Shown: piece after piece, positions 3,935-60,477 of the stretch | How positions within the stretch are numbered: position 1 is the stretch's first letter | How the letters are laid out: each line of letters starts with the position of its first letter | Assembly: GCA_964035545.1 (NCBI GenBank) | Contig: OZ037767.1 | Coordinates: 1,933,680-1,997,679 of the forward strand | Direction: 5' to 3' | DNA length: 64,000 bases | From: Bugula neritina | Lineage: Eukaryota > Animalia > Bryozoa | Translations under genes and position numbers: made by a program | The notes under the pieces: generated by a model | Databases searched by the model: none | Seen by the model: the letters and a program-made list of their open reading frames with translations, nothing else | Told to the model about the DNA's origin: nothing

Positions 3935-6900
3935 TGACACATACTAGTATATACTGTAACATATTGTATACTGACACATACTAGTATATACTGTAATATA
4001 CTATATACTGACACATACTATATGCTGACACATACAGACTATATTGTGTTTTCTAGAGAATGATTAGCACAAAGAGCACACAACTCTGAAATGTGCAAGG
4101 ATGTGATACTTAAGTATTTGTTACAGTAGGGCATTAATACACAGCAGGGCACAACAACAAGAAAATAGCATACAGCACGGCCAGGTCTAAGCTGAGGCAG
4201 TTTGGTGACCATAGAATGAGGTCTACGGGATAGGAGTTGCCTCCCATCGGACACCCATGATGAGCTGCGCACTACTGCTGCTTGTTTCACTGTTTTGGTA
4301 GTCTGAGAACCATCTTCAGGCCTAAAGTCCATCAAATCGATCAAATCAGAGAGCATTTCCTTCTTGATGCTATCTGTCGGACAGTCATTGCTGAGTGATG
4401 GCGAAAAATTGACCTCTAATAGCCAGGGCTTCAGGTTGCTGTCTACTAAGATGTCAAAGCCGTAGAGCTCAAAGCAGTTAGAAGTACGAGGGACTTCAGA
4501 CACCTGAGGTATGATAGTCAAGTTAATGATGAGAATGATCTGCCACCATAGACTGTGGTCATCAATATGTCGCTGATGAAAGTAATGTCGGAGTTGTTTT
4601 ATCGTCCACTTAGAGCCGTGACCGATGCCGGCTTTGTCAACATTGTATGCTGAAGAAAATCTGTTAATAGATGTATTTGTGAGGTGAGAATACAGATTGC
4701 CAAGAGTAGACAAGTCATATTTCTCGCATGAAAACCTCACTATTCCATCATTGTACAGATATATTACCAGGGGGTGATAACTCATAACTGCGACATACAA
4801 ACGAATGTCAAATTTGTGTCCGTGAATGAGAAAGGGGTTGGTTATATACTGCTGGACTACTGTGTTTGTGTCGTATTGAAGCTCGGATAATTCTCGAATG
4901 ATAGAAATACCTCGACCACGAGATAGGTCGGCTGGCTTACAGATCCAACATGGCAACTTATCTACAAAACAAGCCACGCCCACCGGCTATATATTGCATA
5001 TAACAATATACACACAGAGTTGGTGGTTACAAGCAGGCATTGGGGTTTCACACACTAAAGCATTTTATTTGCAAGTTATTTCACTACAAACAGAGGTGCC
5101 CATAAGGCTATGGCTGTAAACTTATTTATACATTTGATGTTAGCTTAAGAGTTTAAAGGACATTTGAGTTTCAGTATGACAGTGTGTAAACTTTTCATGC
5201 CTCCAATGAACAAAGATTCTTTCACGCTGCAAATTTTTTAATAAGTTGACTATTTTTAAACAAATAAAGAAGTTCATTCAACTGAAACTGATTGTGTTAG
5301 TAAAAACTTGAACAAAAAAAATTTCCTGTCAACCCCAAACCCCCCTCAGTCCATAACCTAGCTTTATAAACTTAAGATCACCTATGGATCTTGGGCTATA
5401 TAAAAGCTCAAGTTGCTAAACTTAACTGAATAGAATGAGCTCTTTGTTTAACCTTTTGATGACTTTTCTTATCAATAGAACAGCAGCAACAAACCATTGC
5501 TATGCAAACAAAGCACTAACAAAGTTACATAACTACCAAACAATGGAGACATTTTATAGCTGCCGCTGATAAGAAAATTCTATACCCCTAAATGGAAAAC
5601 ATAAACAGTATTTATTTAATAGTTGAGTTTTTAGATAGTTGATAGTTGTATTCATAGAGGGGTGGTAATAGCTACCCTGTGTATTGGGAAAATGCCAAAT
5701 ATTTATAGAAATTGTGAAATGGAATAGAATTGAAATAAAATTAGAAAGGTTTTAAATTGGCCATTAAACTAAATAAAATCTTAGCTGCTGAATACATAGA
5801 TATAGTCAGATGATGGTTTATGTTGGAAATCTTAGCTTTATATTCCACATGTTCCACAACCACAGCACAATACTAATGATGGCTAGCTCAAAATCAATTT
5901 CTCATTACGGCTAACATCAAAGCTTCAGGTTCCTAATCCATTGATTTCCATGATGTCATAATTTTTCAAGTAAATATAAGAACAACTATAGACACTATAA
6001 GATAACCCACAACAGCTACAACATGAAAATCAATACAACACAATATTTTGACCCCAACTTAAAAATGCCGTTAGAAGCAATCAAAATGAAAGAGAGGTTC
6101 TAATGCAGCGCAGAGTTCACTATATTATTATTTCTTAAAACCGTCGTATAAAACTACATAGTACACTCAGCAGATAAGTAAGTAAAAACAACACGAAGTA
6201 TTTGCTTGTAATATATCCAAGATGACTTGTGACTTCAAACATTATCTAACAGTCTACTGTCTTCTCACAAGTCAATGAAATGTGAACTTGCAAATCCTTT
6301 CTAGAATAACTAATTTGCAGACATATAAAATGAACATTAACCCAAAATATATCACTTCAGTTGCAGAATACCAATGCCATTTGCCTCATCAAGGAAACAA
6401 TTGTACGACACCATAAAACAACACAACATATTAAAGAAAAAAAATATCAAAGATTGTAAATTATGTAAACATTTCGCATTACAACATTCAAATTTAAACT
6501 TAAATTTGTTATATTTAGAGAAATTTAGCAAATAAATTAACCAAACCTGTTTTGGTTTTGTCTGCTTGGTGTGAGAATTCTTGTGTAAATTTACGATAAT
6601 CATTTGGAAGAATGTAGGAGTGGGGAGCGAAGTTGTAGGCGAAGCCATGCAGGGCGTGTTGGAGCTTCAGAAGTCTTGCCAAGCAGTCTTTACGAGTTAT
6701 ACCTATCAAAATGACAAATGCATTATTAATTATTTTGGCTAGTGTAAACATTCACAAGTTTTTTTCGTAATAGTTTTTATATTCTTTGCATATATTACTT
6801 CAAATAATTATTCTATCAATTCAGAATTTTACTGAATTGTTTTATGGAATATTAGATAGAACCACAATAACTATATTTGTGCTAACAAAAGTTGACGAAA

Positions 6901-7373
6901 AGATTTTACGACTTATGATATAAACAAACTCAATATTATAGTAAGTCATACTAATTACTAATTTCAGCAAACTAACGACTCAGTAAAGTATTTTAAAATG
7001 AATGACTTAGTTCTATTGGAGACATAAAACTATATGGCTTTAGAACTAGTTGCATACCCGTTGCTTTAGGACAGTGATTTATTCGTTGCCATGGAAATAG
7101 TTGACTGTAGTCAGAGGTACGAAATCTAGATGTTTTCCACCAACAGTTCCATTGAATGTCGATGTGTATATCTTCATCAAACTCAATCCATCCTCTGTCC
7201 AAAAATGCCTGAGTTGTCAAGAAATATTTTACACTAAGTGAGTTGAAAAGCCTAACTTGCAAAAATAATGATTGATTTGAGATTTGAGAAAATTTTTAGC
7301 TCACCTCTCTGACCAGTTCCGGTCCAATCCCATCATCATTTATTCTAAATATCATCTGTGACTCGTCAGCCAT
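2405..7373 (-). CDS. TTLL2: Tubulin tyrosine ligase-like polyglutamylase TTLL2
   Basis: Exons (minus) 7373-7305, 7208-7058, 6702-6547, 4961-4174, 3625-3478, 3212-3027, 2762-2645, 2519-2405. TTL motifs ITRKDCLAR, WICKPADLSRGRGI, VQQYITNPFLIHGHKFDIRLYV, HLTNTSIN, GHGSKWT, CFELYGFDILVDSNLKPWLLEVNFSPSL match TTLL2. The four small C-terminal exons are inferred from phase only. Probable non-coding exon with donor at 7881. Confidence 0.85.
3213..3297. repeat. 21-bp tandem repeat overlapping a TTLL2 splice acceptor
   Basis: TCTGC(A/T)ACA(G/A)TAACTCAGT(A/C)G x4; on the minus strand the units carry a CAG, and the last one is the in-frame acceptor. Confidence 0.8.
3690..4040. repeat. 20-22-bp minisatellite (ACTGACACATACTAGTATAT) with embedded (TA)n
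   Basis: Degenerate tandem array in TTLL2 intron; same unit as the array at 43172-43743 (reverse complement). Confidence 0.85.
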
Positions 7374-16485: not shown

Positions 16486-20763
<4,278 letters not shown>

Positions 20764-26698: not shown

Positions 26699-27229
26699 CG
26701 ACAAGTGTCATAGTTGTCCTCTATTTGGTTTGGACAAGTAGCGACAAGTGTCAACTGTGACAACTGCAATTTTCTAATCTATTCCTACACTATGCATTCT
26801 TTATTTTATAATTATTGTCACAATGTTTTTGTACCCCTTTTACTAAAGTAAGACATAATGGAAGGAAATATATTATGAAAAGCTCAAGAAAAAGTTTAGT
26901 GTACTAGATTAGATACATGTGTACCTCCATATTGAAATATATGTTGGACAGAAGCTGTGAGTGCTGATGTATTATACAGTATTATATTGTGTAACAATTA
27001 AAAGTTTTCATAATTTAAGTTTGTTATGCAACTGATGAGCATAGGGTTATTAAAGTGTTTTAGTGAAATTTATTTTATAATTTAAATTATTTTTTACAAC
27101 AAAACTATAATTTATGCAAGTATGATTTTTTATGCAAATCAGAAATAAAATAGTTTTGTTGTAGAGGACAGTATTTTTAAATCAGACAGAATAACTTTAT
27201 TTGAGTATAACTGCGATTGGGACACATAC

Positions 27230-27621
27230 TGTGGTAAATTTATGTTGTGTGTGTGTGTCCTTTGTTGCCGAGATCGGTACTTCGGTCCTCCGAAACACCG
27301 ATATGCCGATTCTCGGCATATCGGAATACCGAAGTACCGAAATGCCGGATTCGGCATTTCGGATTCCCGAAGTGCCGATATTCGGTATTTCGGGCCTCCG
27401 ATCTCGGCAAACAAAGGAATGTCTTTGTCCTGCATGTATATAAAAGCCAGCGAGTTCCAGTATAGTTCAGTCTACTACTGGAGCTCGCTGGATAAAGACC
27501 ATTGATTCACTCGGACTATACTACAATAAAGATTATCTACATTCTACCTTATTTCTCGCCTTGTTTCTTATACAAGCATGTAACAGCACTAGTTTCATTC
27601 ACAATCCACAAAACTATCACA
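27230..27621 (+). repeat. 5' LTR (392 bp)
   Basis: TGTGGTAAA...CTATCACA; TATATAAAA at 27437-27445, AATAAA at 27525-27530; appears identical to the 3' LTR (offset 7602). Confidence 0.97.
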
Positions 27622-27622
27622 T

Positions 27623-27642
27623 TGGTGGCAGCAGTGGGATTC
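27623..27642 (+). promoter_or_regulatory. Primer binding site, tRNA-Leu type
   Basis: TGGTGGCAGCAGTGGGATTC one base after the LTR; complementary to a tRNA 3' end ...GAATCCCACTGCTGCCACCA, typical of eukaryotic tRNA-Leu(AAG/TAG). Confidence 0.85.
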
Positions 27643-27672
27643 TACGAATAGCTAGTTGCTAAGAGAAATAGG

Positions 27673-28572
27673 ATGGCCCCAGGGGACCCAGCCCCTGAGG
27701 CAGCAGCACCACCAGCCCTCACTATTGAGGCGCTGGTCACAGCCCTCCAGGGATTGCGGGGGCAAGGACAGGCAGCACCTGGTGACAGGTATCGCCTCCA
27801 GCCCCCGACTTTCGGAGGAGATGGAGACGTGGAACAGTTCATCCAGGAGTTCGAGGACGTGGCCGCCACCGCTGAATGGCCAGTACGGGTGCGCGTCCTC
27901 CAACTCCGGGCCTGTCTGACAGGCCGGGCCAGGAACTTCGCACTGGGACCCGACGAAGCCCACATCCTGCGGGCTCTTAGGGCCCGGTTCGGGTTGACCA
28001 CGGAAGAGGCGACAGACCAGCTACAAGTGATGAGGAGAGACCGAAGGACATCTCTGGAAGATCACGCTAACGAGGTAGAGCGCCTGGCTCAGGCTGCTTT
28101 CGGTCACGCCACTGGCGACGATCGGAAGCGCCTCGTTTTTAACGCGTTCTTCCGGAGCGTGAACCACCCGGACCTCCAGCGGTACTGGCTAGCCGCAAAA
28201 GTCAAGAGCCTGGACGAAGCACTAGAGATGGGGAAGGCCTACTTCCAGGTGGAAGAGCCACGGAGGGCGAACTACGCAGCTCGCCAGGTGGCCGGAGATG
28301 CAGAAGAGGTACCCCCAACCCCACAAGTGGCAGCAGCAGCTACCCCGTCACCTGAGCAGACGCAGCTCAACATGCTGATGAGCATGATGAAAGGCCTGCA
28401 GGCTACAGTGACGGAGTTGCAGCGCAACCAGACGGACAGGCGGGCTCCCCGCTCGCGGGACGACCCTGTCCGCCCCCCTATGCCCACTTGCTGGGAGTGC
28501 GGGATGCCAGGACATGTGAGAAGGCACTGCCCTAAGGGACAGAAGCCTTTAAACACCCGAGGCTCACGGTGA
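27673..28572 (+). CDS. gag: Gag (capsid-like region plus CCHC zinc knuckle)
   Basis: 299-aa ORF after the PBS; PTFGGDGDVEQFIQEFE...W...LRACLTGRA capsid-like motif; CWECGMPGHVRRHC knuckle. Confidence 0.93.
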   Translation: MAPGDPAPEAAAPPALTIEALVTALQGLRGQGQAAPGDRYRLQPPTFGGDGDVEQFIQEFEDVAATAEWPVRVRVLQLRACLTGRARNFALGPDEAHILRALRARFGLTTEEATDQLQVMRRDRRTSLEDHANEVERLAQAAFGHATGDDRKRLVFNAFFRSVNHPDLQRYWLAAKVKSLDEALEMGKAYFQVEEPRRANYAARQVAGDAEEVPPTPQVAAAATPSPEQTQLNMLMSMMKGLQATVTELQRNQTDRRAPRSRDDPVRPPMPTCWECGMPGHVRRHCPKGQKPLNTRGSR

Positions 28573-28590
28573 ATTCCGCCACCCGTGGGC
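28548..28590 (+). promoter_or_regulatory. -1 programmed ribosomal frameshift signal
   Basis: T TTA AAC heptamer in gag frame (28548-28554), 6-nt spacer, then stem GGCTCACGG/CCGTGGGCC; pol is in the -1 frame, open across the site and without its own ATG. Confidence 0.8.
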
Positions 28591-31500
28591 CCCATGCCAA
28601 TCCGGTCCGGGATGGGACTCGGAAGACAGTAGAAGAGACCTCTCCAGAGTCGACCTATATCGAGTGGCACGCAAACCGGAGATCTCGGAGACCGAAAGGC
28701 CTACCCGATCCTCCTGCCCTGCCACTCGATACCCGGATGGAACTAGAAGAAACCGGATGGCAGGCACCTCGGAGATCTCGGAGGCCGCAAGGTCTACCCG
28801 ATCCTCCAGCCTGGCCACTCCGTAACCGGTTCGCGGGGTTGCCCGAGGAAGTTGTGGAGGAGGATTCAGCTTACTCGCAAGAGTATCCCAAGCTACCCTC
28901 CCGACCTCAGAAAACCCCCGTTGTCTCTAAGACGAAGAGGAGGCCCGCTGTGCGGACCCAAGTCGTGTCTCCCCCAGAGACTGACCGCTCCAGGAGCACC
29001 CAGCCGTATGGAAGCAGCTACTTCCTGCCCGGAAAGATTTCGGGTAAAGCTGCCACATTCCTACTGGATACTGGGTGCACTACCAACCTGCTGAGTAGGC
29101 GTCTCTTTGACACCCTTGGTGCACGAGAGCGGGCGAGCCTCGAGCCGTATGAAGGTGCGCATGGTACGTTGGCGGACGGATCATGCATTCCTTTCTACGG
29201 CGTCATTTCACTACCTGGACGCGTCCGTGATCAAGCAGTTCACGAGACGTTTATCGTCAGCCAGCTGAAGGAGGACGCCATCTTGGGAATGCCCTTCCTG
29301 GAGAAACACCAGTGCCACATGGATTTCCAGAAGTCAGTGGTAGTGATGGCTGGGAAGGAACTTGTCTGTGTTGACAAGTTTGGCAGGCCCTTGGTGGGCG
29401 GAGTCCAGGTAGTACGGGACTGCACAGTTCCGGGGAGGTCCCAGGCGACTCTCCGATGTAGAGTCAACTGCAAGGGGATCGCCGGCCTGGGGATGGTTGA
29501 AGGAACGCACGGAGCCATCCGACTAGCAAACAGCCTGAATCGGCTAGATTGTCGGCAAGAGCTCCTCGTGCAGTGCATCAACCCCTTCACGGAACCTGTC
29601 CAACTATCGGCTGGAGCGCTGGTGGGGAAGTACCACTCCATCCAGGAAGCGGATGTGGGTCCGGCACTGGAGACAGTGGCCGACAACCAGGGAAACCCCC
29701 CTCACACCAGACGAGAAGCAGTCCCGGAGCATCTGGCTGACCTGTATGACGGAGCATGCGGAAACTGTACGAGTAGTACTGAACGCCAAGTACTGGCTCA
29801 ACTACTCGCGGAGTACAGTGATGTCTTTAGTCGTGGCGATAGAGACATGGGGCTGACTAAGGTTATCTCTCACGAGATACCCCTGGCAGCCGACACCACT
29901 CCCATCAGGCAGCCTACCCGACGTCTGGGCCCGGAGAAGGAGAAGGAGGTGAGCCGACAGGTACAGGATCTTCTGGACCGGGATCTGATTGAGCCTGCCC
30001 ACGGTGCGTGGAGCTCCCCAGTGGTCCTGGTCAAGAAGAAGGATGGTAGCTGGAGATTCTGCGTAGACTACCGCAGACTCAACAACGCCACCATCCAGGA
30101 CGCCTACCCTCTCCCACGGATAGATGAGTCTCTAGATGCCCTCGCGGGTAGCAAGTACTTCAGTACTTTGGATCTGCTTAGCGGGTACTGGCAAGTGCCC
30201 CTCAGTCCTGATGCCCAGGACAAAGCAGCATTCATTACTCGCGACGGGCTCTGGAAGTGGAAAGTACTGCCATTCGGACTAACGTCCGCTCCGGCAACAT
30301 TCCAACGGCTCATGGAGCAAGTCCTCAGTGGGTTACACTGGAAGACCCTCCTCATCTATCTGGACGATGTCATTGTCATCTCCCCAGACTTTGCGACTCA
30401 TGTCAGTCGTCTGCGGGAGGTCTTTGACCGTCTCCGGGCAGCCGGACTGAAGCTGAAGCCCTCCAAGTGCGCACTCCTGCAGCCAGAAGTCACATACCTG
30501 GGCCATGTGGTTGGCCGTGATGGGGTCGCTACCGATCCAGAGAAGGTACAAGCTGTGAAGGAGTGGACTGTTCCCCGCGACCTCCCTGAGTTGCGTGCAT
30601 TCCTGGGCCTAGTAGGGTACTACCGGCAGTACATACCTGGTTTCGCAGGAGTGGCTCAGCCGTTAAATCGGCTGACCGCAAAGGGAGTCCGGTGGCAGTG
30701 GACACAGGAGGAGCAGCAGGCATTCGACCACCTCAAGCAACGGCTAATGGAAGCGCCAATCCTGGCGTATCCTGACCCAGCCAAAGAGTACATCCTGGAC
30801 ACCGACGCCAGCGACCACAGCGTGGGAGCCGTCCTGTCTCAAGTCCAGGGTGGAAGTGAGGTGGTCGTGGCTTACTATAGCAAGACTCTCGCGGCCGCCG
30901 AGAAGAACTACTGCACCACTAGGAAGGAACTCCTAGCAGTAGTCAAGGCGGTCAAGCACTTTCGGCCATATCTGTATGGGAAATCGTTCCGTTTGCGAAC
31001 AGACCATGCGTCACTGATATGGCTGTGTAAACGTGCAGAGCCCTCGAGCCAGGTAGCTCGTTGGCTAGAGATTCTTGCCGAGTTCTCTTACCGTATAGAG
31101 CACCGTGCAGGCCGGAAGCATGGGAACGCCGACGGCATGAGCCGCCGGCCGGTAGAGGACTGTAAGCAATGCCTGCACATTGAACAGCGGGACGGGGGAC
31201 CCGCTCGCCTTGACGTGGAAACGGAGCTAGTGGAGGGCACCGCCTACCGGTGGGAGCACGGCCATCTTCGGACCGAAACCCACCAGGACGGTGTCCAGGC
31301 GCTCCACGCCAACCCTACTCTGCACCAGAACGTCAAGGAGCTGTGCCGACTCCAGGAGACGCTACCCGGCGCGGTAGCGGACATCTTCCGGGCCAAGAAG
31401 GAGGGCCGACGACCTAGCGAGGAACGGCAGCGGCAGGGAGACGTTGAGTTCCAACTCCTCTGTCGTCGCTGGGATGCCCTCAAGGTCAGTCCTGATGGCC

Positions 31501-34500
31501 TCCTGATGATAACGTTAGCAGCAGACAACCGCCAGCAGAAGAGGGACCGCGTCGTCTGTCCACGCGCCCTCCGGCGGGAACTGATCTGGGACACCCATAA
31601 GCAGGCTCATGCTGGAGTCAGTCGGGTCATCAGGTGTCTGCGGCTGCGTTGGTATTGGCCCGGAATGACTCGGGACGTACGACTGCGGGTACGGCAATGC
31701 GAGGTCTGCCAAGCTAGCAAGCATGGCCGCCCCACGGAAACCACTGGTCGACGCCGGCTGTACGCTGGTCGACCGTGGCAAGTAGTGGCGGTAGACCTCG
31801 TCGGGCCTATGCCGTTATCCGCCAGAGGAAACACCTGGATACTGGTGCTCACGGACCACTTTACCCGGTGGGCGGATGCTCTGGCTATTCCAGACGCCAC
31901 CGCCCCCACAGTGGCCCGGACCCTGGACCAACATGTATTCTGTTACCTCGGTTTGCCCGAGCAGATACATACAGACCAGGGTGCCCAGTTCCAGTCCCAG
32001 CTCATGGGAGACCTCTGCCGGATATGGGGGGTGAACCAGAGTCGGACCACCCCATATCACCCGCAAGGGAACGGAGTCGTCGAGCGGAACAACAGGATGT
32101 TGGGTGATGCGCTCCGGAGCCTGCTGCTTGGTCGAGGTCAGGAAGAATGGGACGTGGTGCTGCCGCAGATCATGCGGGCTTACCGCAGCACACCACACTC
32201 CGCCACGCAGGAGACCCCAAACTTCCTGATGTTAGGCCGGGAGACGCGGGTCCCGGAACACCTGACGTACCATGTTCCTGCCCCCGAGTCACCGGTACAC
32301 GAATATGTGGAGGGTCTGATGGACATCATGGGCAAAGCTCATGATGCGCTGCGCACCCAGCAGTGGCAGACCCGCACAGAGGACTCAGAGGAGCCCCCGT
32401 TGTACCAAGTGGGAGACTGGGTCTGGATGGTGAGTTACCGTAGGCGGCGTGGACAGTCGGCTAAGCTTCAGCCCAAGTTCGTCGGCCCCTACTGCGTAGT
32501 AGAGGTGCTGCCCAACCACACATACCGTGTGGAGCGCTCTGGACAGGTCTCTGTCCAGAGCGAGCAGCGCCTCAAACCTTACCATGCCAGCCCAGACGCG
32601 GTGGGTCAGGCTCCACCCCTCTTGGAGCCCCACCGTCAGCCCAACCGTCGTGGACGGGCCACCCGGCCCCGTGAGGTGGAGATTATGGTCCCCAGGGAGG
32701 CAGACCAGGAGCAAGCCGCCCTGATAGAGCAGCTGGAGCGACAGCAGAGAGCGGAGCGGGAGCAGGAACAGCAGCAAGCCCTTGGCTCACAACCCCTCCC
32801 GGGGGAGGACACCCCCACCCCCGTACGGGGTGAAGACGGGGACCCCCCTACCAGGGTAGCCCAGGAGCCACCAACACCACCAGAGTCTGTTCCACTTGAG
32901 AGGAGCCAGCGGCCAAGAAGACCTCCCAGGTACCTGGCAGACTATGCTGTAGGACACCTGGAGGGGCCCCCTCCTGAGGAAGACCCCCCCCACACTGACT
33001 GCCACCCCATCTTGGTTGGAAATTCCCTCCATCACCCCGGAGAATTCCACCAAGAAGAAGAAATGGCCGACCGAATTTCGGAAGACACTCGATCACGCGA
33101 GTTGTCTCCTCGAAATCCGGGGGAAATTCCCACGAGCCACGCGACTCGGGCTTCAGCAGGTAAAACTTCTGAAGCACGAGGTTCGGCCATTTCTCATTCT
33201 GACCTCACACAGCTCGCACGGCAGTTGCAACTCAAACTAAATTCTGATTCTAATACTCATTTTGATTTTACCACTATTCTCCGTACGCTATCAGCGGCTA
33301 TGGGGATCACTCTACCAGATACACAATCAGGTATTTCTTCTAGATTAGATCCTCCAGTTGCGGAGTCTAATCAAACTACAGTAGACTGGTCTTTACTAGA
33401 TTTACTTGGTTCTGATATCTTAGGACCGGAGGCCGAGATGGATCTCGGAGATGACTCTGCCATTGATACATTGTTGAATCACGATGTAGGCTCAGTCAAT
33501 TTCTGCGATACACCTCGGCCCTCGGTTTTTAACTTATCTCCATTCACACCTGTGCCGAATTTCGGCGATAGTGAGACCGGCTTCTCACAGCCTCTACTAT
33601 CTATTCTAGAGGAGCGGATGGACGTTGAGGAGGCCAGTCGGTCCGACTCCCCTCCCCCACCGGGCCTTGCTTCGGCTTCTACCAGCCAGCAGGCCGCCAC
33701 CTCCTCCACAGAGGTGTGTTCCGCCATGGTTGGCCCTGACCCCAAACCGGTCGAGCTTCAGCTCACGGCCGGGGAGGAGCAGGGCATCCTACACGGCGAC
33801 CACCTGCCAGCAGAAGAAGACGCCTCCCCAATACTGGCCCTGCCTCGGGCCCTGGTCGCCCGCCAGTATTGGGTGACTGGACCCACCAACCTAAAAATTG
33901 GTGATGCTTGCGGTGAGCCGGGCAACCGCATCTGCCATGAGTGTAAGAGGAAATTCTCCTCTGCACGGCGGTTGCGCGTACACGCCCCTCAGCATTACAT
34001 CAACGTGTTTTGCCCGTGTGGGGAGTTCTCCTACCAGAGAGACTATGTGTTGAGACATCAGCGCATAGCTCACTGCCACACGGGCTACACGTTTGCTGTA
34101 GACCAGGCCTCCTTTCCCGAATTTCGGGACCTGGTGCTGCCACACGTGGCGGATCCCCACAAACGGGCTGCTCTCGCCCTGGGATTTCCCGCGTGTAGGC
34201 CAGTTCGGGAGGAAGAAGGGGAGCCCGCCGCGACACCCCAACCGGCAGCCACCCAGCCACTTCGGGTCATGCTGGCACGGGTCGGACCAGGTGCCAGGGC
34301 CGATTCATCGGACCTGGGCCCCCGACCCTCGGCGGCGGGCGGGAAGCAGACGCACCGCCAGCGACGTCCTGCCCGTGGTACTACCGACCGCCCTAGGCAC
34401 CAGACGTCAGCTCAGTTGGCAGAGGAGGTCCACCAGTTACGCCGGCAGCTCCGCAGATGTGAAGAGGAGCTGGGGCAACTCCGGAGACGAGTTAGCCGCC

Positions 34501-34532
34501 TGGAGCGGGGTCGTTCTGGCGACCGCCGCTGA
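28548..34532 (+). CDS. pol: Pol polyprotein (PR, RT, RNase H, integrase, GPY/F) with long C-terminal ZnF/coiled-coil extension
   Basis: LLDTGC protease (~29067), PFGL and YLDD RT (~30357), DTDAS RNase H, H-x3-H..C-x2-C and D,D(35)E integrase (VDLVGP, TDQG, GVVER), KLQPKFVGPY; no stops or frameshifts. Confidence 0.96.
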   Translation, partial: FKHPRLTVNSATRGPHANPVRDGTRKTVEETSPESTYIEWHANRRSRRPKGLPDPPALPLDTRMELEETGWQAPRRSRRPQGLPDPPAWPLRNRFAGLPEEVVEEDSAYSQEYPKLPSRPQKTPVVSKTKRRPAVRTQVVSPPETDRSRSTQPYGSSYFLPGKISGKAATFLLDTGCTTNLLSRRLFDTLGARERASLEPYEGAHGTLADGSCIPFYGVISLPGRVRDQAVHETFIVSQLKEDAILGMPFLEKHQCHMDFQKSVVVMAGKELVCVDKFGRPLVGGVQVVRDCTVPGRSQATLRCRVNCKGIAGLGMVEGTHGAIRLANSLNRLDCRQELLVQCINPFTEPVQLSAGALVGKYHSIQEADVGPALETVADNQGNPPHTRREAVPEHLADLYDGACGNCTSSTERQVLAQLLAEYSDVFSRGDRDMGLTKVISHEIPLAADTTPIRQPTRRLGPEKEKEVSRQVQDLLDRDLIEPAHGAWSSPVVLVKKKDGSWRFCVDYRRLNNATIQDAYPLPRIDESLDALAGSKYFSTLDLLSGYWQVPLSPDAQDKAAFITRDGLWKWKVLPFGLTSAPATFQRLMEQVLSGLHWKTLLIYLDDVIVISPDFATHVSRLREVFDRLRAAGLKLKPSKCALLQPEVTYLGHVVGRDGVATDPEKVQAVKEWTVPRDLPELRAFLGLVGYYRQYIPGFAGVAQPLNRLTAKGVRWQWTQEEQQAFDHLKQRLMEAPILAYPDPAKEYILDTDASDHSVGAVLSQVQGGSEVVVAYYSKTLAAAEKNYCTTRKELLAVVKAVKHFRPYLYGKSFRLRTDHASLIWLCKRAEPSSQVARWLEILAEFSYRIEHRAGRKHGNADGMSRRPVEDCKQCLHIEQRDGGPARLDVETELVEGTAYRWEHGHLRTETHQDGVQALHANPTLHQNVKELCRLQETLPGAVADIFRAKKEGRRPSEERQRQGDVEFQLLCRRWDALKVSPDGLLMITLAADNRQQKRDRVVCPRALRRELIWDTHKQAHAGVSRVIRCLRLRWYWPGMTRDVRLRVRQCEVCQASKHGRPTETTGRRRLYAGRPWQVVAVDLVGPMPLSARGNTWILVLTDHFTRWADALAIPDATAPTVARTLDQHVFCYLGLPEQIHTDQGAQFQSQLMGDLCRIWGVNQSRTTPYHPQGNGVVERNNRMLGDALRSLLLGRGQEEWDVVLPQIMRAYRSTPHSATQETPNFLMLGRETRVPEHLTYHVPAPESPVHEYVEGLMDIMGKAHDALRTQQWQTRTEDSEEPPLYQVGDWVWMVSYRRRRGQSAKLQPKFVGPYCVVEVLPNHTYRVERSGQVSVQSEQRLKPYHASPDAVGQAPPLLEPHRQPNRRGRATRPREVEIMVPREADQEQAALIEQLERQQRAEREQEQQQALGSQPLPGEDTPTPVRGEDGDPPTRVAQEPPTPPESVPLERSQRPRRPPRYLADYAVGHLEGPPPEEDPPHTDCHPILVGNSLHHPGEFHQEEEMADRISEDTRSRELSPRNPGEIPTSHATRASAGKTSEARGSAISHSDLTQLARQLQLKLNSDSNTHFDFTTILRTLSAAMGITLPDTQSGISSRLDPPVAESNQTTVDWSLLDLLGSDILGPEAEMDLGDDSAIDTLLNHDVGSVNFCDTPRPSVFNLSPFTPVPNFGDSETGFSQPLLSILEERMDVEEASRSDSPPPPGLASASTSQQAATSSTEVCSAMVGPDPKPVELQLTAGEEQGILHGDHLPAEEDASPILALPRALVARQYWVTGPTNLKIGDACGEPGNRICHECKRKFSSARRLRVHAPQHYINVFCPCGEFSYQRDYVLRHQRIAHCHTGYTFAVDQASFPEFRDLVLPHVADPHKRAALALGFPACRPVREEEGEPAATPQPAATQPLRVMLARVGPGARADSSDLGPRPSAAGGKQTHRQRRPARGTTDRPRHQTSAQLAEEVHQLRRQLRRCEEELGQLRRRVSRLERGRSGDRR

Positions 34533-34831
34533 GACTATTCGTATAGTATTTTTCTTTCCTACTCTTATTCTTTGTTTGTTTATTTTATGTGTGTAAGTTC
34601 TTCATGTAATGCATGTACCTATTCATGCTCTGTTTTTCTTGTGTGTGCACAAATCTTCCCTGTATTTTCTTTTTATGTTATCATTGTAATATTACTATCA
34701 CTGCATGTTTACCATATTTTTTTTTGTGTGTTACTTCCAACTGTGCGTTTTATTGTCGTGTCATTCCCTGTTGTGTGTTTGTGTTGTGTACGCCTCTTTA
34801 TCGGAAAGCATGCTTTCCGATGGGGGGTGTG

Positions 34832-35223
34832 TGTGGTAAATTTATGTTGTGTGTGTGTGTCCTTTGTTGCCGAGATCGGTACTTCGGTCCTCCGAAACAC
34901 CGATATGCCGATTCTCGGCATATCGGAATACCGAAGTACCGAAATGCCGGATTCGGCATTTCGGATTCCCGAAGTGCCGATATTCGGTATTTCGGGCCTC
35001 CGATCTCGGCAAACAAAGGAATGTCTTTGTCCTGCATGTATATAAAAGCCAGCGAGTTCCAGTATAGTTCAGTCTACTACTGGAGCTCGCTGGATAAAGA
35101 CCATTGATTCACTCGGACTATACTACAATAAAGATTATCTACATTCTACCTTATTTCTCGCCTTGTTTCTTATACAAGCATGTAACAGCACTAGTTTCAT
35201 TCACAATCCACAAAACTATCACA
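34832..35223 (+). repeat. 3' LTR (392 bp), preceded by short G-tract GGGGGGTGTG (PPT candidate)
   Basis: Direct repeat of 27230-27621 followed by TSD ATAC. Confidence 0.97.
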
Positions 35224-35859
35224 ATACTGGCCATGTGAGTCAGACAACTCCAAGTAATTAGACAACTCCAAGTTTGCTCCTCAACTATGCAGCAGGCTGT
35301 CGGTATACACGGTTTACAGAGGCCATGGGAAGAGGGGGTGGTTTATTGTTCTCTCACTACAAAACACAAGGATTGTAGGTTAGGTGCATTGCTATAGTGA
35401 ATGACTAAACTTTGCTATGAATTGCTCTAAAAAGCCAAGTCCTACAATATACAGGCATAAAGGGATGTGATATAATGTAATGTAAAAACATGTGACGTGA
35501 TAAAATGATGTAATATGGTCACATGATCACATGACTTGACAAAATAACGTGTTATGTTATGAAATGTTTCAGATTGGGAAAAACTAATGATATATTGCTA
35601 CTTTACTTTTGTTATAAAAACAATATAGTAATTTAACATTAGCTTCAATCTTTTGTAAGTAAAGCTACAGTGTAGCATCTAGCTTTTAATTGATTTCAAT
35701 CGTAACTTATAAGAGACACACTAGATCACATTTACTGCAATATTTAAACTATAAAACAGCTGCCAGCTGATATTAAAAAGATATAAAATATATTTATACT
35801 TTCAACTGCTACTGTACTTCATTGCTTTAGCTGGAGTTCTCAACAAAATATTTAAATAC

Positions 35860-38800
35860 TTACTGCTTAACAAATTTAAAATCAAATAGCCTTAGGTCTC
35901 TGTCAAGAGATTTTAGATTGTCCATATCTGCATCACTCAGGCTAAAGTCAAACAGCTGTAAAACAATAAATGGCTATAAACAAGCATTACACGTGAAATA
36001 GATGTATATACAGATAAATAAACGATAATTTATACATACACATCTATTTCAGGTGTAATGTGTGTGAATGCATGCAAATATAATGTATATAATATTAATA
36101 TATACATTATATTAATTACACTTAAAATATATGGCTATAAATGTAAACAAATAAATAAATAAAATTAAGCATGCTTAAAATAATAAAACTCAGTAATATT
36201 GGCAGCGCTAGTTAGTTTGTAATCCTGAAACCGCACCCCTTTAGCCTAAGGGGTCAACTTGTTAACCAATAACTGCTGTACTTGCACTTTGAGCAATCAT
36301 GGATTTTATTTAGGTAAGTCAGAATTTACAGACATTTTTGCCCATACAGATCTATTTGCAATGTATCTTGGTTAGTTTACTTTAGTTTAAACTAGAAGTT
36401 CTTTTGAAAAATATGTTGAAATAATATTGTTAGTTTATCAGTTATTGTCTGGTGAATCAAAAAGTTTTAAATAGATATTCATATACCTGGAAATTAGATT
36501 CAATTCTCGACTGAGTCACACTCTTTGGTAGAACAATGATACCTCTTTGGATGAGATATCTCAGCAGAATCTGAGCAGGCGTCTTGCTTAGCTTTTCCGC
36601 TATCTCCAGGACGACGGGATCTTTAAGGGGCGTGTCATCAGCATCTGCGCCTCTACATAATTAATATTTTAACTCTATATTTTATTTTAAAACTAGTCAA
36701 ATTAATTATTTTCAATACAACACTGATATGCTTCAAGAATAAACAGTATATTCGGTTGATTCATCATTTGGAATATTTTAATATAAATAATAATCTGATC
36801 CCCATCACTTTTTATCATGATAAACAATAGTGCAGTGAAAAGAATTTCAAGAAATAGCATAGTGACAGAGTATTGTATGTGACATAAGATCATGTGACAG
36901 ACAGCACTGTGACAGAAAGCCTGTAAATAAGGACTGTTAACAGTTGAATACCTCATAGCGGCTGATCCTGGTGACCCTATAGGTGCGTACGCTGACACAG
37001 TTATTCCCTTCTCATTACACAGCTCCACCAGTTCTTTCTGCTGGAACCAGACGTGACACTCTACCTGTTGGGTTATGTAACATGCAGGTTTTACTCAGGT
37101 GGATTTTATGACAGGTTATTATGTAGATGCAGTTGATGGGTGAAACTACACAGTATTTGTGCAGGCTGCAGCAAAAAGTCAAAATAAGAGATTAGTGTTA
37201 CTTTTGTAGATGCTGGGTTTCCCAAGCTTGTTCTATTATTAGTGACTCACCTGCAAATTACAGGGCTTGATTCTGGACTCCTCCCAAACTCTTCTCACCT
37301 GAGCTGCGTTGAAGTTTGAAATCCCGAGAGCTTTGACTAAGCCCTCGTCTACTAATTTCTCCATTTCCTGTACAATACAAACTTTGATACTCAGTAAAGT
37401 TCTCTTTGTTAAAAGGCAATAATTTTCAACGGCATAGCGAACAACTTTATAACCTTTTATTCTGAGTTTACGTTAGTTCCAAAACTACTGCTAATTATGG
37501 CAGTATTATGAAAACAGGTGCCAGATGTAGATTTTAAGGGCGAAATATTCGTTAGTGTGAATTGAGGCTGAAAACTCACTGCGAAAACCACAGACAAAAT
37601 CAGAGACAGTGCAATAGTTTTAAGATTAGAATAGCCCAATAAGCTGCAAGTAAGACGTATATGATGGGTTACCTTGTAGGTGTCCATGAAATCAGTTTCT
37701 ATCCAAATCGGAACTCCGTCTGCGTCAAAAGGCAAATACTCTGGTGGGTTATTGTCCAGTCTACAATCCTGTGTGTAAGTCAACAGTAGATATTAGTTTT
37801 ATTAGCAATGGCTGAGTTTGATATACTTACACTACTAGAATAGTGAAGGTATATTAGTGCAGTAGATGTGTACTTACACTACTAGAGAAGTAGGTGTTAG
37901 ATACTTACACTAGTAGAGTAGTAGGTGCTAGATACTTGCACTACTGGAATAGTAAGTGCATACTTACACTACTAGAGCAGTAGGTATATAATACTTACAT
38001 TACTATAGAGCAGTAGGTATATACTTACACTCATAGCCGCAGGGAAATGAATGAGGAGCAGGTCAATATAACTTGTCTTTAGACACTTCAAAGAGTCTTC
38101 TGTCTGCTGCCGCACTCTGTGAGGTGCTGCTGACCCTCCAGTCAGCTGAAAGCAGCATAGAAATGCAGACGTACTATACATACATGCTTTACAAAACTGT
38201 CAACTAAATTCACCACTTCAAATTGTAAACATTCTGAGCACATGGCATCAAAGAGTACTCTTACCTGAAACTGGATCTAACTCTAGGAAGTACCTAGTAA
38301 TAACAGTTATTCAGCGGTAGAGCCATAGTGGCAGCACGACTTAAGCTCTCAGCACCACACGCACACACATGTATATAGTATTGTAGCTATAGCTTTTACT
38401 AAAAGTCTTGGAGCCAACTTTAGTAAAGAAAACTTGAAGAAATGGAAAAGTAGTTCATGAAAACATGTCGTAGAAACTTGTTGCTGTAGCTGTACAGCAT
38501 ATACCTAACGCCCCACCCCTCTGCACAGAAATAATTGTCTATTATATAAAACAATTTATAATTTACTATTAGGCTTGACTAAGAATTTTAAGTTTTATTG
38601 AGGACAACAATTTTACAATTCACTTTCTCACCTTTGTGGTAATGAAGATCTCATCTCTTGTAACTTTTCCAGCTTTAATTGATTCATCCAGGGCGGTTCC
38701 AATTTCCTTTTCGTTCATGTATCCCCTGGCAGTGTCAATGTGTCTGTATCCAACGTCTATCGCAATGGAAACAGCTTTCTCCACTTCACCGGGTTTTGAC

Positions 38801-39343
38801 TTGAAGCACATAACAAAAGGGGTATGCAATATCTTTCAAAGTGGCTTGGTAGCTTAGTTAGATGTGTTTTAATCTGTGTGCTTTATAACCAGAAAGCTTC
38901 AAAGTTAATTTCACGAACACGAAGTTATCTGAGCTGTATAATAGTTTATCCCATGATACAAAGGAAAACATCTTTAAAATAAAATATCATCAATAATTCT
39001 CTTAAGATGCATGCTGAGCCTTGTCTTTAGATTATAGAATATTTATAAGTTATCTTTCTGCTGGAGTAAAACTCGAGTTTTGTAATGTCAGAAGACATGT
39101 GAACTGGCAATGGTATTCACAGCAATCTGTTGAATGCAGAGTTATAGCTGTGAGCAAAACAATCACACTCCTAGTAAGTAACTACCAACAAGCTGTCACT
39201 CCATTCAGATATTATACAAACTGCTTCCAGCATACAGAATTAAACACATTGAAAGAAAGGATTCTTACCAGGAAAGTACCCAGTCCAACAAGGGGCATTG
39301 GTTTCCCCATCAACATTGGGAGAGCAGTTTTTGTGGCTGCCAT
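35860..39343 (-). CDS. Aldo-keto reductase family 1-like protein (paralogue B)
   Basis: Exons (minus) 39343-39269, 38799-38632, 38145-38029, 37768-37673, 37367-37251, 37064-36952, 36652-36487, 35955-35860. Motifs [78 protein letters not shown]. Intron positions match paralogue A. Possible extra last exon 35441-35405. Confidence 0.92.
37825..38030. repeat. ~31-bp degenerate repeat carrying repeated GTAAGT (minus strand) at an AKR-B donor
   Basis: Units like ATACTTACACTACTAGAG(C/T)AGTAGGT; the last unit contains the used donor at 38028. Confidence 0.7.
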
Positions 39344-40517
39344 CCTGAGTAACTCTATACTATCAACTAACCGGCTTTCACAATGATTATCACTGATGCT
39401 CATAGTAATGCGTATGCTAATACTGTTGGCAGTGTTCCAATGATCATATGATTGCGGTTTGTTCGCTATCTGTGACAGATGAGGGTTGTGCAAACTACAT
39501 GTAGATTGTAGAGCATTAGAACTGAATGATTTATGATTGGCTGCAAAAGATTAAATTCAAATATTGTGTTTTTATGTAATAAGTTAGAGTTATAAATAAA
39601 TAATAATTGTTAAAGCATGGCTACACCTGCAGATGCTAGGAAAGTTTAGTTGTTTTGCAAGCTAACATAATGAATTGTCTGCTGTTGAAATTAAATGATT
39701 TAAACTATAGCTAATGATTCCAACACTGTGAACGGGAAAGCTGCTCTAGTGACCAAATTTATTGTCAGAGTTGTAATTCCTTACTGGGTAATTTATTATA
39801 GAACAGACACAAAGTAACATAACAGAAAATACATTAAAAGTAATAAAATGTGTTAAAAGTGAGAAAAACTAGTTTAATCGATTATACCATTCACAGCAAA
39901 ATTGCCACCAGGCAGTTAAAAACTCAGTTGTATCCTAAGAATAATTTATTACACACATATAAATAAAATTGAGAAATAATGCTATTAAAAAGTTCAGCCA
40001 ATGATTGTTTAAAAACCTTTGAGGAACATACAATACATTTAAATTAAGTCCATCACATTTCAGCTCAAACTAAAACATTTAAAATATTCAAGGAATCGCA
40101 TCTATTTAAAAATGCTTCAAATTTTTGAACAAGAATAGAAATTTGGAATGCTCTTGTTTGAAAGAAGCCAATAAGCTAATAAGTACTAAGTACTTAGTAG
40201 TACAACTTGCAAACATTACAGAAATGATGTATGCAACCGGCAAGGCATAAAAACGTTCAAAACACAAGCAGAAAAAACACAAGAAAAATTAGTTGACTGC
40301 ATTGAGATTAAAGATATGCGATACTGGAAAAACATGATACAGCCCTTGGCCTAAGACAGCACACTAATATATTACGCTACTAGTCTACTAATAGTAAATG
40401 GGGGAAGTAATATTACACTCTATTAAGCATTCACATTAGAAACATGTTTGGGAATATCACATCTGCACACTTCACAACACTGAGACTTGTGTTCCAACAC
40501 ACGTCTCTTTCACCTCT

Positions 40518-57000: not shown

Positions 57001-58403
57001 AATCCATGTCCGCAATCACCTTTATCAGTTGCAGTTAACTTCATTAAAATTTAGGAGTTATATTTTCATTGCAAAACTCAGAAATTTATTGGAAAATTAA
57101 CATCGAAACACGTATGATAAATTAGGGGTTGATATCAGATGATACAGTCTTGGAAAAAAGTCAATGGTTGCTCGGTTTTTCAAAGTAACTCTTGTTTGGG
57201 TTATTTACTCTCTCAATATCTGTTACGATGCGACATTGGGGTATAATCTACTAAAAGAGCTAGTATATAACTTATAACAATAGGTATATAACTTATAACA
57301 ATATTCACACTGAAGTCACACTAGAGATACGCTGTGATATATTCTCTTCCATCTTTACTTTTTAGGGAAGAAATTGTCTCAGATACTGAAGACGGAATTG
57401 CTTCTAGTCAGGTATCTTTTCAGTTATTACTATGAATTATACTAGTATATATTACTATGAATTATACTAGTATAATTCATAGTAATATATACTAGTATAT
57501 ATTACTATGAATTATACTAGTATATATTACTATGAATTATACTAGTATATATTACTATGAATTATACTAGTATATATTACTATGAATTATACTAGTATAT
57601 ATTACTATGAATTATACTAGTATATATTACTATGAATTATACTAGTATATATTACTATGAATTATACTAGTATATATTACTATGAATTATACTGTGTTAT
57701 ATATTATATAATACTTTAATGTTTGACTAGTGTATACGCGATTTAAAATTTTAGTGAATAAAGTTATAGTTTTACAGTTCATTGAGACAATTATTCAACA
57801 CAAAATATAAATTACAAGCAGTTAAAAATATTTGTTTTAAATTAAAAGCATTTTTGTGGAAAATATTCATTAAAATATTATGCCAGTTGATGACTCATAA
57901 TCACCCACAGGTGGATAAGCTGACCGCTGTCGGTATTTCCCAGAGAGCAGCTGACACTCTGAGTTCAATTCATGGCACTTCAGTAAATACTCGAGAAGTT
58001 CACTCGCAGAGAGTCAAAGAACTCGTCAATGAACGAGATGCTGCACTCAGAAAGGTACTACCTGCTTAATATTTATCACTTAGTAGTTATCTGCACTATG
58101 CACGTTGAGATCACAACTCCTTAACTTTTCATGTCTAAATCCTAATCTCATTGTTGGTAGTTGTGTAAAAAATTCAACCCATTGTTTTTTGTAATTGTTT
58201 TAATTTATTAATTCACCATTATTATTGGGTGTGTATTGATGCCTGAGCGTGTGATGGAATGCTGCCGGTGTGCTCTATAGTCGCTGCTGCCACAGGTTTA
58301 TTGTTTGCTGCCACAGGTGTCTCAGTTGGAGTCAGAGATGCTGAAGCTACAGAGAGAAGTGGATGAGCTTTTACCTCTTCAAGATGAACACCTGAAACTC
58401 AAG
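51007..58403 (+). CDS. MIPOL1: Mirror-image polydactyly 1-like coiled-coil protein, 3'-incomplete
   Basis: Exons 51007-51197, 52870-53049, 53580-53722, 54243-54425, 55516-55643, 56101-56206, 56780-56909, 57366-57411, 57911-58054, 58317-58403 join in phase. ALIQEIYEKQRQRDRAMMGRLKLANEERDRAL and ELVNERDAALRKVSQLESE resemble MIPOL1 ERD repeats. No further exon or stop identified in the window. Confidence 0.78.
52178..52262. repeat. 23-bp minisatellite (AATTAGTTTAAATTGCTATTAGG)
   Basis: About 3.5 copies. Confidence 0.8.
55978..56096. repeat. 19-bp degenerate minisatellite (TTTATAGACATCCGTTCTA)
   Basis: Runs up to the acceptor at 56100. Confidence 0.75.
56662..56745 (+). mobile_element. Possible degenerate tRNA-derived SINE head
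   Basis: A-box-like TAGTGTAGTGG (56670) and B-box-like GGTTCTACCCC (56724); no cloverleaf established. Confidence 0.25.
57425..57695. repeat. 25-bp minisatellite (TACTATGAATTATACTAGTATATAT) with one inverted unit
   Basis: About 11 copies starting just after donor 57412; inversion near 57470-57495. Confidence 0.92.
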
Positions 58404-60290: not shown

Positions 60291-60477
60291 TTAATACAAA
60301 ATAAATAAAATAGGAAAATCGTAATTTGTTTTTCAATAGTTTATGTTAAAACTAAATGGTGTTAAGATGATTTTAATTACACATGTGTAATTAAAACTAT
60401 CTCAACACCATTTAGTTTTAACATAAACTATTGAAAAACAAATTACGGTTTTCCTATTTTATTTATTTATGTTTTAA
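60291..60477. repeat. Near-perfect spacer-less palindrome (~185 bp; MITE/fold-back-like)
   Basis: Arms AAATAAATAAAATAGGAAAATCGTAATTTGTTTTTCAATAGTTTATGTTAAAACTAAATGGTGTT... and the reverse complement, centred on ...TTACACA|TGTGTAA.... Confidence 0.9.

Follow-up and report, generated by a model that had tools for sequence, protein, structure and literature searches.

What is encoded by the long C-terminal extension of the Pol protein of a Ty3/Gypsy retrotransposon in the bryozoan Bugula neritina, and what might it do for the element that carries it? The window analyzed here is a 64,000-nucleotide (nt) stretch of contig OZ037767.1 (assembly GCA_964035545.1, positions 1,933,680 to 1,997,679 of the forward strand), and a complete retrotransposon with long terminal repeats (LTRs) spans 27230-35223 of it; all oriented features of this element lie on the plus strand. 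The pol open reading frame (ORF) runs past an Arg/Pro-rich motif and ends in a tail of 528 codons (32946-34532). Comparative sequence evidence indicates that this tail is a real, selected and family-wide module. The role favored here, at a little under even confidence, is that of an element-encoded transcription factor made within Gag-Pol.

The pol ORF (28536-34532) is a single stop-free frame of 1,998 amino acids (aa). Pfam profiles place protease (PR) at 29028-29297, reverse transcriptase (RT) at 30030-30509, RNase H (RH) at 30699-31085, the zinc-binding and core segments of integrase (IN) at 31560-31724 and 31770-32063, and an SH3/GPY-F domain at 32412-32534, which is the last Pol domain to be placed and ends at residue 1333. 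The Arg/Pro-rich motif follows at 32901-32945. In the one tail-less relative compared (locus L001; 37% identity across 1,209 aligned residues), the frame stops a few codons past a like motif. In the window, as the preliminary description of this DNA had claimed, Pol stays open for 528 codons beyond the motif, in frame with integrase. At local base composition this would occur by chance with a probability of about 2e-8, and the remaining two forward frames across the tail contain 14 and 26 stops. The same description had reported that the tail has neither a chromodomain nor a transmembrane helix. This was borne out: no chromo family was matched in Pfam at E ≤ 1 by the window ORF or the tail, or at E ≤ 0.01 by the related protein P0184, so that the element does not resemble a chromovirus in this respect, and no transmembrane-like stretch was found in the tail, for which the best 19-residue hydropathy is 0.94. 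A scan for splice sites returned four pyrimidine-rich AG acceptors; near the 5′ end no convincing donor was seen.

To what extent the extension is shared was established by sequence searches. A query consisting of the last 218 aa recovered 29 unnamed proteins among 1,442 candidates. Among 1.84 billion representatives, a profile of these recovered 289 clusters (at 50% identity) with E ≤ 0.001, of which 133 reach E ≤ 1e-10; the best 150 of the 289 were examined, and the weakest remainder may include ordinary C2H2 proteins. The median pairwise identity among 80 thinned domain rows is 0.29. The preliminary description had allowed that related copies might stop directly after the end motif, and this is contradicted by relatives that read through it. 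P0179 and P0180 keep one frame from the Pol-end motif via the fingers to the coil; both start just before the motif, and the integrase core is therefore not shown in them. P0160 and P0124 cross or begin at the motif and extend to just before the fingers. The complete arrangement is seen in the cluster of P0181, which has 34 members. Among the 15 members listed are five ORFs of 2,373 aa, differing by 7-14 residues, that carry PR, RT, RH and IN together with the domain, and this family is 55% identical to the window in Pol and about 30% identical in the finger region. The linkers between motif and fingers (329 aa in the window, 309 in P0179, 327 in P0180 and 625 in P0184) diverge fast, and the frame is nonetheless open throughout.

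The conserved part of the tail is a compact double-zinc-finger domain of about 115 aa (33861-34205), delimited by profile, AlphaFold and alignment. Finger 1 (33933-33995) has the form C-x2-C-x12-H-x3-H, with canonical C2H2 spacing, and finger 2 (34011-34076) the form C-x-C-x12-H-x5-C. Ligand conservation was counted in 163 domain rows collapsed to 139. In finger 1 the two Cys are kept in 111/116 and 116/118 rows and the two His in 119/123 and 117/125; in finger 2 the first three ligands are kept in 122/124 (Cys), 117/123 (Cys) and 116/122 (His) rows. Seven of the eight zinc ligands are thus retained in 94-98% of rows, contrary to the possibility, raised at the outset, that the Cys and His residues would prove not to be conserved. 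For the final ligand of finger 2, the Cys at 34074, the count is 83 of 113 rows; the His that precedes it is kept in 6 of 111 and the His that follows it in 41 of 121. Of the two C2H2 fingers originally proposed, the first therefore stands, and the second is better described as C-x-C/H/C, its flanking His residues being poorly kept.

These counts also bear on whether the tail could be a chance read-through into a captured host fragment that is drifting neutrally. The composition of 33186-33490 is distinct (GC 0.43 vs about 0.60; T-rich, with low GC at third codon positions) and the domain is present in host-annotated genes, both of which would suit such an origin. The retention of zinc ligands at approximately 30% overall identity contradicts it, as do a frame that is open in several families and the recovery of 289 clusters, and a neutral read-through is accordingly very improbable. 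Differences between this copy and related contigs over 32900-33320, of which 40 of 57 were listed and which are too thin for a ratio of nonsynonymous to synonymous rates, comprise 14 silent changes, 25 residue-changing ones and one that by itself would create a stop, in a codon for which two further changes are listed.

The conserved unit exceeds the finger pair. A W..T...I helix precedes it and a V-D strand with helices follows, and the Trp, Thr and Ile upstream and the Val-Asp pair downstream are conserved as well as the ligands are. Two Arg residues of the finger-1 helix are kept in 80/119 and 79/120 rows, and the finger region has a net charge of +7. A first model of the last 218 aa had a predicted local distance difference test score (pLDDT) of 70 and no fold match at E ≤ 0.001. 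AlphaFold with a 24-row alignment gave one compact 115-aa unit (pLDDT 94.8; predicted template modeling score 0.84). Each of the top 19 structural matches to it is a tandem zinc-finger domain, in most cases from a structure solved on DNA; the best is Kaiso (Z 4.0, root mean square deviation 2.8 over 57 residues). No solved structure spans the whole 115-aa domain and only the finger pair superimposes, from which novelty of the fold does not follow; among predicted viral proteins the tail had no structural match at E ≤ 0.001. In profile searches, finger 1 matches Pfam zf-C2H2 with E 0.00022 and 21.9 bits, below the 25.2 cut-off, and zf-C2H2_4 is matched by 6 of 24 family members at E ≤ 0.1; no Pfam family covers the 115-aa domain. 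The zf-BED profile is matched by none of the 24 members at E ≤ 0.1, and a single BED row in Atlas stands at rank 28 with a score of 0.90. After C2H2 families are skipped, 26 of the 30 nearest Atlas clusters have no common family. Nor is the domain a Kruppel array, there being no further canonical fingers and a five-residue hydrophobic linker instead of the TGEKP type. A prediction of the complex of two copies with zinc scored 0.29 against a mark of 0.32 and weighs neither way.

A domain of this shape might bind a host repressor, a PIWI-interacting RNA pathway component or a chromatin factor, and not nucleic acid, and so act as a decoy that shields the element from silencing. The packing of an atypical finger 2 into a larger domain, the lack of a full match among solved structures and the fast divergence of the family would fit such a role. 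The conserved basic residues of the finger-1 helix and a layout that resembles a DNA-binding factor speak against it, and we regard it as quite unlikely.

That layout was examined on either side of the fingers, where the acidic stretch, basic patch and heptad coil were all found at the positions originally claimed. Upstream, an acidic-hydrophobic segment (33336-33530) of activation-domain-like composition contains the sole tile of its kind in the 1,998-aa ORF. A tile was defined as 39 aa with a charge of -8 or lower and at least six W/F/Y/L residues, which we take to be a suitable criterion for activation domains. Of 16 members with at least 150 aa ahead of the fingers, 12 have such a tile in that part, compared with 1 of 43 downstream pieces, and the upstream part is net acidic in 19 of 23 members with at least 100 aa upstream; P0184 has one tile in its tail and one in Pol. 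Downstream, a basic patch (34353-34379) may serve nuclear import or nucleic-acid contact, and a heptad coil follows at 34416-34505, corresponding to a predicted helix at residues 178-216 of the 218-aa model with pLDDT over 90. By a home-made coil score, a heptad stretch above 95% of shuffles occurs in 38 of 53 members with at least 80 aa after the domain, and in 37 of these 38 the coil lies within 45 aa of the C terminus. The order of acidic part, fingers, basic linker and coil is thus repeated across the family, and on these counts the layout is conserved without sequence likeness.

Is the domain restricted to retrotransposons? The preliminary description had considered that matches might be confined to Gypsy copies, and they are not. 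The only named members among the family are five uncharacterized bryozoan proteins, three from Watersipora subatra (XP_067940963.1, XP_067940964.1 and XP_067944745.1) and two from B. neritina (KAF6040922.1 and KAF6040923.1). These stand-alone genes encode the domain once or twice, some also have a coil, and no Pol domain was found in them. Such genes suggest that the module can work without integrase. Three stand-alone members across two genera (P0144, P0196 and P0199) share a weakly similar unnamed N-terminal domain, and the locus tags of the two Bugula genes are adjacent. Tandem double domains occur in P0042/P0178, P0066 and P0199/P0155, two of these being annotated bryozoan genes. In a domain tree of 80 of the 98 rows, judged by eye and with some labels lost on de-duplication, fused and host-annotated rows are scattered over several distinct positions, and the deep branches are weakly supported. 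This distribution fits repeated domestication of the domain by hosts; capture of the domain from a host may also have occurred, and some stand-alone genes may be mis-annotated element relics.

Position in Pol points to another role, in which the tail would be kept on integrase as a targeting domain, its fingers reading a DNA motif, a chromatin mark or a host factor and its coil aiding multimerization of the intasome. The tail lies in frame at the integrase C terminus, the position occupied, in the available parts of two sources, by chromodomains and the CR motif (PMC3059260, PMC12440569). The in-frame fusion to Pol is under selection across families, and this copy lies approximately 90 nt beyond a host gene stop, at a single site. 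In Ty1, according to the text available, the C-terminal half of integrase is long and disordered and targets by protein contact (PMC8487063). Integrase-tethered targeting is a serious possibility, although a less probable one than the favored role, and it accounts neither for the recurrent acidic-hydrophobic tile nor for the genes that carry the domain and have no integrase. The transcription-factor reading is favored because it explains these two observations better. The two roles are not mutually exclusive. With respect to the dimerizing, DNA- or chromatin-binding module first proposed, its element-encoded and selected nature and its transcription-factor-like layout are supported.

Several observations count against a transcription factor borne on Pol. 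Domains at this position of Gypsy elements are classically targeting domains, as far as the available part of one source goes (PMC3059260). Four of the 16 members have no acidic tile, and an in-frame loss has removed the acidic segment from the close subfamily of P0014, P0124 and P0160. Structural similarity is weak, with no match at Z ≥ 5 and none by Foldseek at E ≤ 0.001, and binding by C2H2 fingers extends to RNA and protein as well. Family members are mostly known as fragments: the best 150 matches are all of 596 aa or less, a single-sequence search of proteins of 1,098-3,497 aa found no match, and only one of three long matches contained Pol (7,994 candidates scored). No protease site was identified. 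In wider surveys, pattern scans with the finger alignment gave 65 matches in metagenome contigs and 17 in viral contigs, none of them a confirmed locus, and an integrase query gave three loci in metagenome contigs, none with the domain, and none in viral contigs.

Candidate target sites for such a factor are present in the element itself. The U3 region of the 5′ LTR contains a nested palindrome of CCGA/TCGG units (27258-27418) upstream of a TATA box (27437-27445), with a second copy at 34860-35020 in the 3′ LTR. It has 18 units in 162 nt, compared with 1.0-1.5 per kb in the flanks, a CpG observed/expected ratio of 1.75, compared with about 0.45 in the flanks, and a fold z score of -14.5; it may be a target array. 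In Rfam, the LTR palindrome gives only a sub-threshold microRNA match. A nucleotide-conserved island with an imperfect hairpin lies within the tail at 33005-33064, over which contigs from related families accumulate in each of the three runs. The runs X2 and X3 belong to a set of three samples from one study; of 87 X2 contigs over the island, none has 99% likeness and 27 have 95-99%. Related contigs from X2 and X3 are thin over 33182-33462, and such thin cover proves nothing.

Four decamers that we take to be kappaB-like (starting at 32978, 33018, 33039 and 33121) fall within 32978-33131. Four such decamers turned up in 8 of 2,000 sequences resampled synonymously and in none of 2,000 with shuffled codons, for a motif that was chosen after the sequence was seen. 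The segment is a possible internal enhancer or RNA element. Further downstream, an in-frame ATG (33300-33302) closes a T-rich stretch and is a candidate second start that would give 410 aa; the equivalent Met is the called start of five relatives (P0027, P0084, P0093, P0117 and P0121). The Met at 33063 was also considered as a start and was dropped because the residue differs in related contigs. Together, the decamer cluster, the T-rich stretch and the ATG may resemble an internal promoter, as a lead only.

The island bears on a further alternative, namely that the tail is a regulator similar to Rev, with fingers and Arg patch binding the hairpin RNA of 33005-33064 and aiding export, packaging or translation. 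An Arg-rich patch with an oligomerizing coil fits Rev-like proteins, the island is conserved at the nucleotide level across related families, and it folds better than its shuffles (0-1 of 200 do as well). The z score of about -3.5 was obtained in a window picked post hoc, and the signal is gone in a wider window (z -0.6). The hairpin may derive from two palindromic DNA sites, the island has no match in Rfam, and the acidic tile would again be unexplained. A Rev-like role is rather unlikely.

For the favored role as a transcription factor, the following sequence of events can be proposed. The tail would be produced as the end of Gag-Pol via a -1 frameshift and packaged into the particle with it. 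It would then either be released by the element protease or stay on integrase, and would enter the nucleus alongside the new DNA copy. There, DNA binding is predicted for the double zinc finger and dimerization of the tail for the coil, and host co-activators would be drawn to the element promoter by the acidic segment. Transcription from the LTR would be turned on as a result, giving positive feedback. The internal start near 33300 might provide a second supply of the tail, and the U3 palindrome array and the island at 33005-33131 are candidate binding sites only.

The remaining features of the element are those of a young and intact copy. Its LTRs (27230-27621 and 34832-35223) are 392 nt each, have TG...CA ends and are mutually identical, and they are flanked by a 4-bp target-site duplication (27226-27229 and 35224-35227); together with the Pol order PR-RT-RH-IN, these place the element in Ty3/Gypsy. 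Contigs of X2 and X3 connect 27225 directly to 35224, and this empty site shows the insertion to be polymorphic. A primer-binding site, presumably of tRNA-Leu type, lies at 27623-27640, and a purine tract precedes the 3′ LTR at 34819-34827. The gag frame (27673-28572) has one CCHC knuckle (zf-CCHC, E 0.017, under the curated cut-off). Its overlap with pol contains a heptamer (28548-28554) that we take to be of the slippery class, which points to a -1 frameshift. An Arg/Pro-rich short peptide with two repeats lies at 28680-28830, between the frameshift site and protease. The element does not resemble the env-bearing, errantivirus-like type: tail hydropathy is low and no further long forward ORF lies within the element.

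A minus-strand gene (35314-39400), presumably aldo-keto-reductase-like from its motifs, has an apparent last exon whose end lies approximately 90 nt away from the 3′ LTR, and the element is antisense to this gene, inside or just beyond its 3′ untranslated region. Elsewhere in the window, exons on the minus strand at about 4040-7300 presumably belong to a tubulin-tyrosine-ligase-like gene, and exons on the plus strand at about 19780-20120 presumably to a two-pore potassium channel. About 1.6 kb of pure GT dinucleotide repeat occupies about 17500-19150, and spacer-free long palindromes lie at 60299-60468 and 57438-57693, one with an 85-nt arm pair at 95%.

Transcription of Ty3/Gypsy elements is thought to depend on host factors, and dedicated transactivators that bind DNA are characteristic of complex retroviruses. 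A Pol-borne factor, if real, would be a new route to element self-activation; insertion targeting, if real, would mean that a naturally occurring integrase carries a zinc-finger DNA reader of its own. With either role there is a large unnamed zinc-finger domain family that has a confident predicted fold and stand-alone, host-annotated members. A broader proposal, on present sequence evidence doubtful, is that a widespread animal Gypsy lineage carries a sequence-specific factor in Gag-Pol, that particles deliver it to activate new copies, and that it has repeatedly been donated to hosts.

How does the tail compare with known systems? Tas of foamy viruses, which combines an acidic part with a DNA-binding part, is likewise an element-encoded regulator 3′ of pol; unlike Tas, a separate ORF, the tail module is fused to Pol. 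Kaiso, SALL4 and CTCF have two-finger units that superimpose on the finger pair (Z 3.5-4.0), whereas the tail has a C-x-C/H/C finger 2, a five-residue linker without TGEKP and a pair that sits inside a 115-aa domain. Foamy viruses use an internal promoter and Tas-mediated transcription, according to the part of the source available (PMC7828637). Within Ty3/Gypsy, the available parts of two reports describe chromoviruses and CRM elements that, like the element studied here, have an extra in-frame domain after GPY/F of Pol (PMC3059260, PMC12440569); unlike theirs, the tail has no chromodomain and consists of 500-900 aa with zinc fingers, acidic tile and coil. Grande gene23, RIRE2, Retand and Boty also have conserved extra coding sequence between pol and the 3′ LTR, for which regulatory roles are proposed and unproven; as far as the available text goes, these ORFs are antisense, separate and found in plants or fungi, whereas the tail is sense, fused and found in an animal (PMC7264820). 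KnitGypsy-Dnmt3 and the orchid AlkB elements, in the portions of text available, provide further examples of Gypsy lineages that carry a selected extra domain, which in one of them lies within Pol (PMC5890265, PMC9289625), although these domains are enzymes of known families and that of the tail is non-enzymatic and belongs to no named family. The architecture was not found described in the open full-text literature, the scope of which leaves aside supplements, subscription journals, Repbase, GyDB and Dfam, and zinc fingers are not mentioned in the accessible parts of three papers (PMC13524379, PMC8556966, PMC6338049). In summary, the tail is an accessory module at the end of a Gypsy integrase, an arrangement known in kind, and is built here around an unnamed zinc domain.

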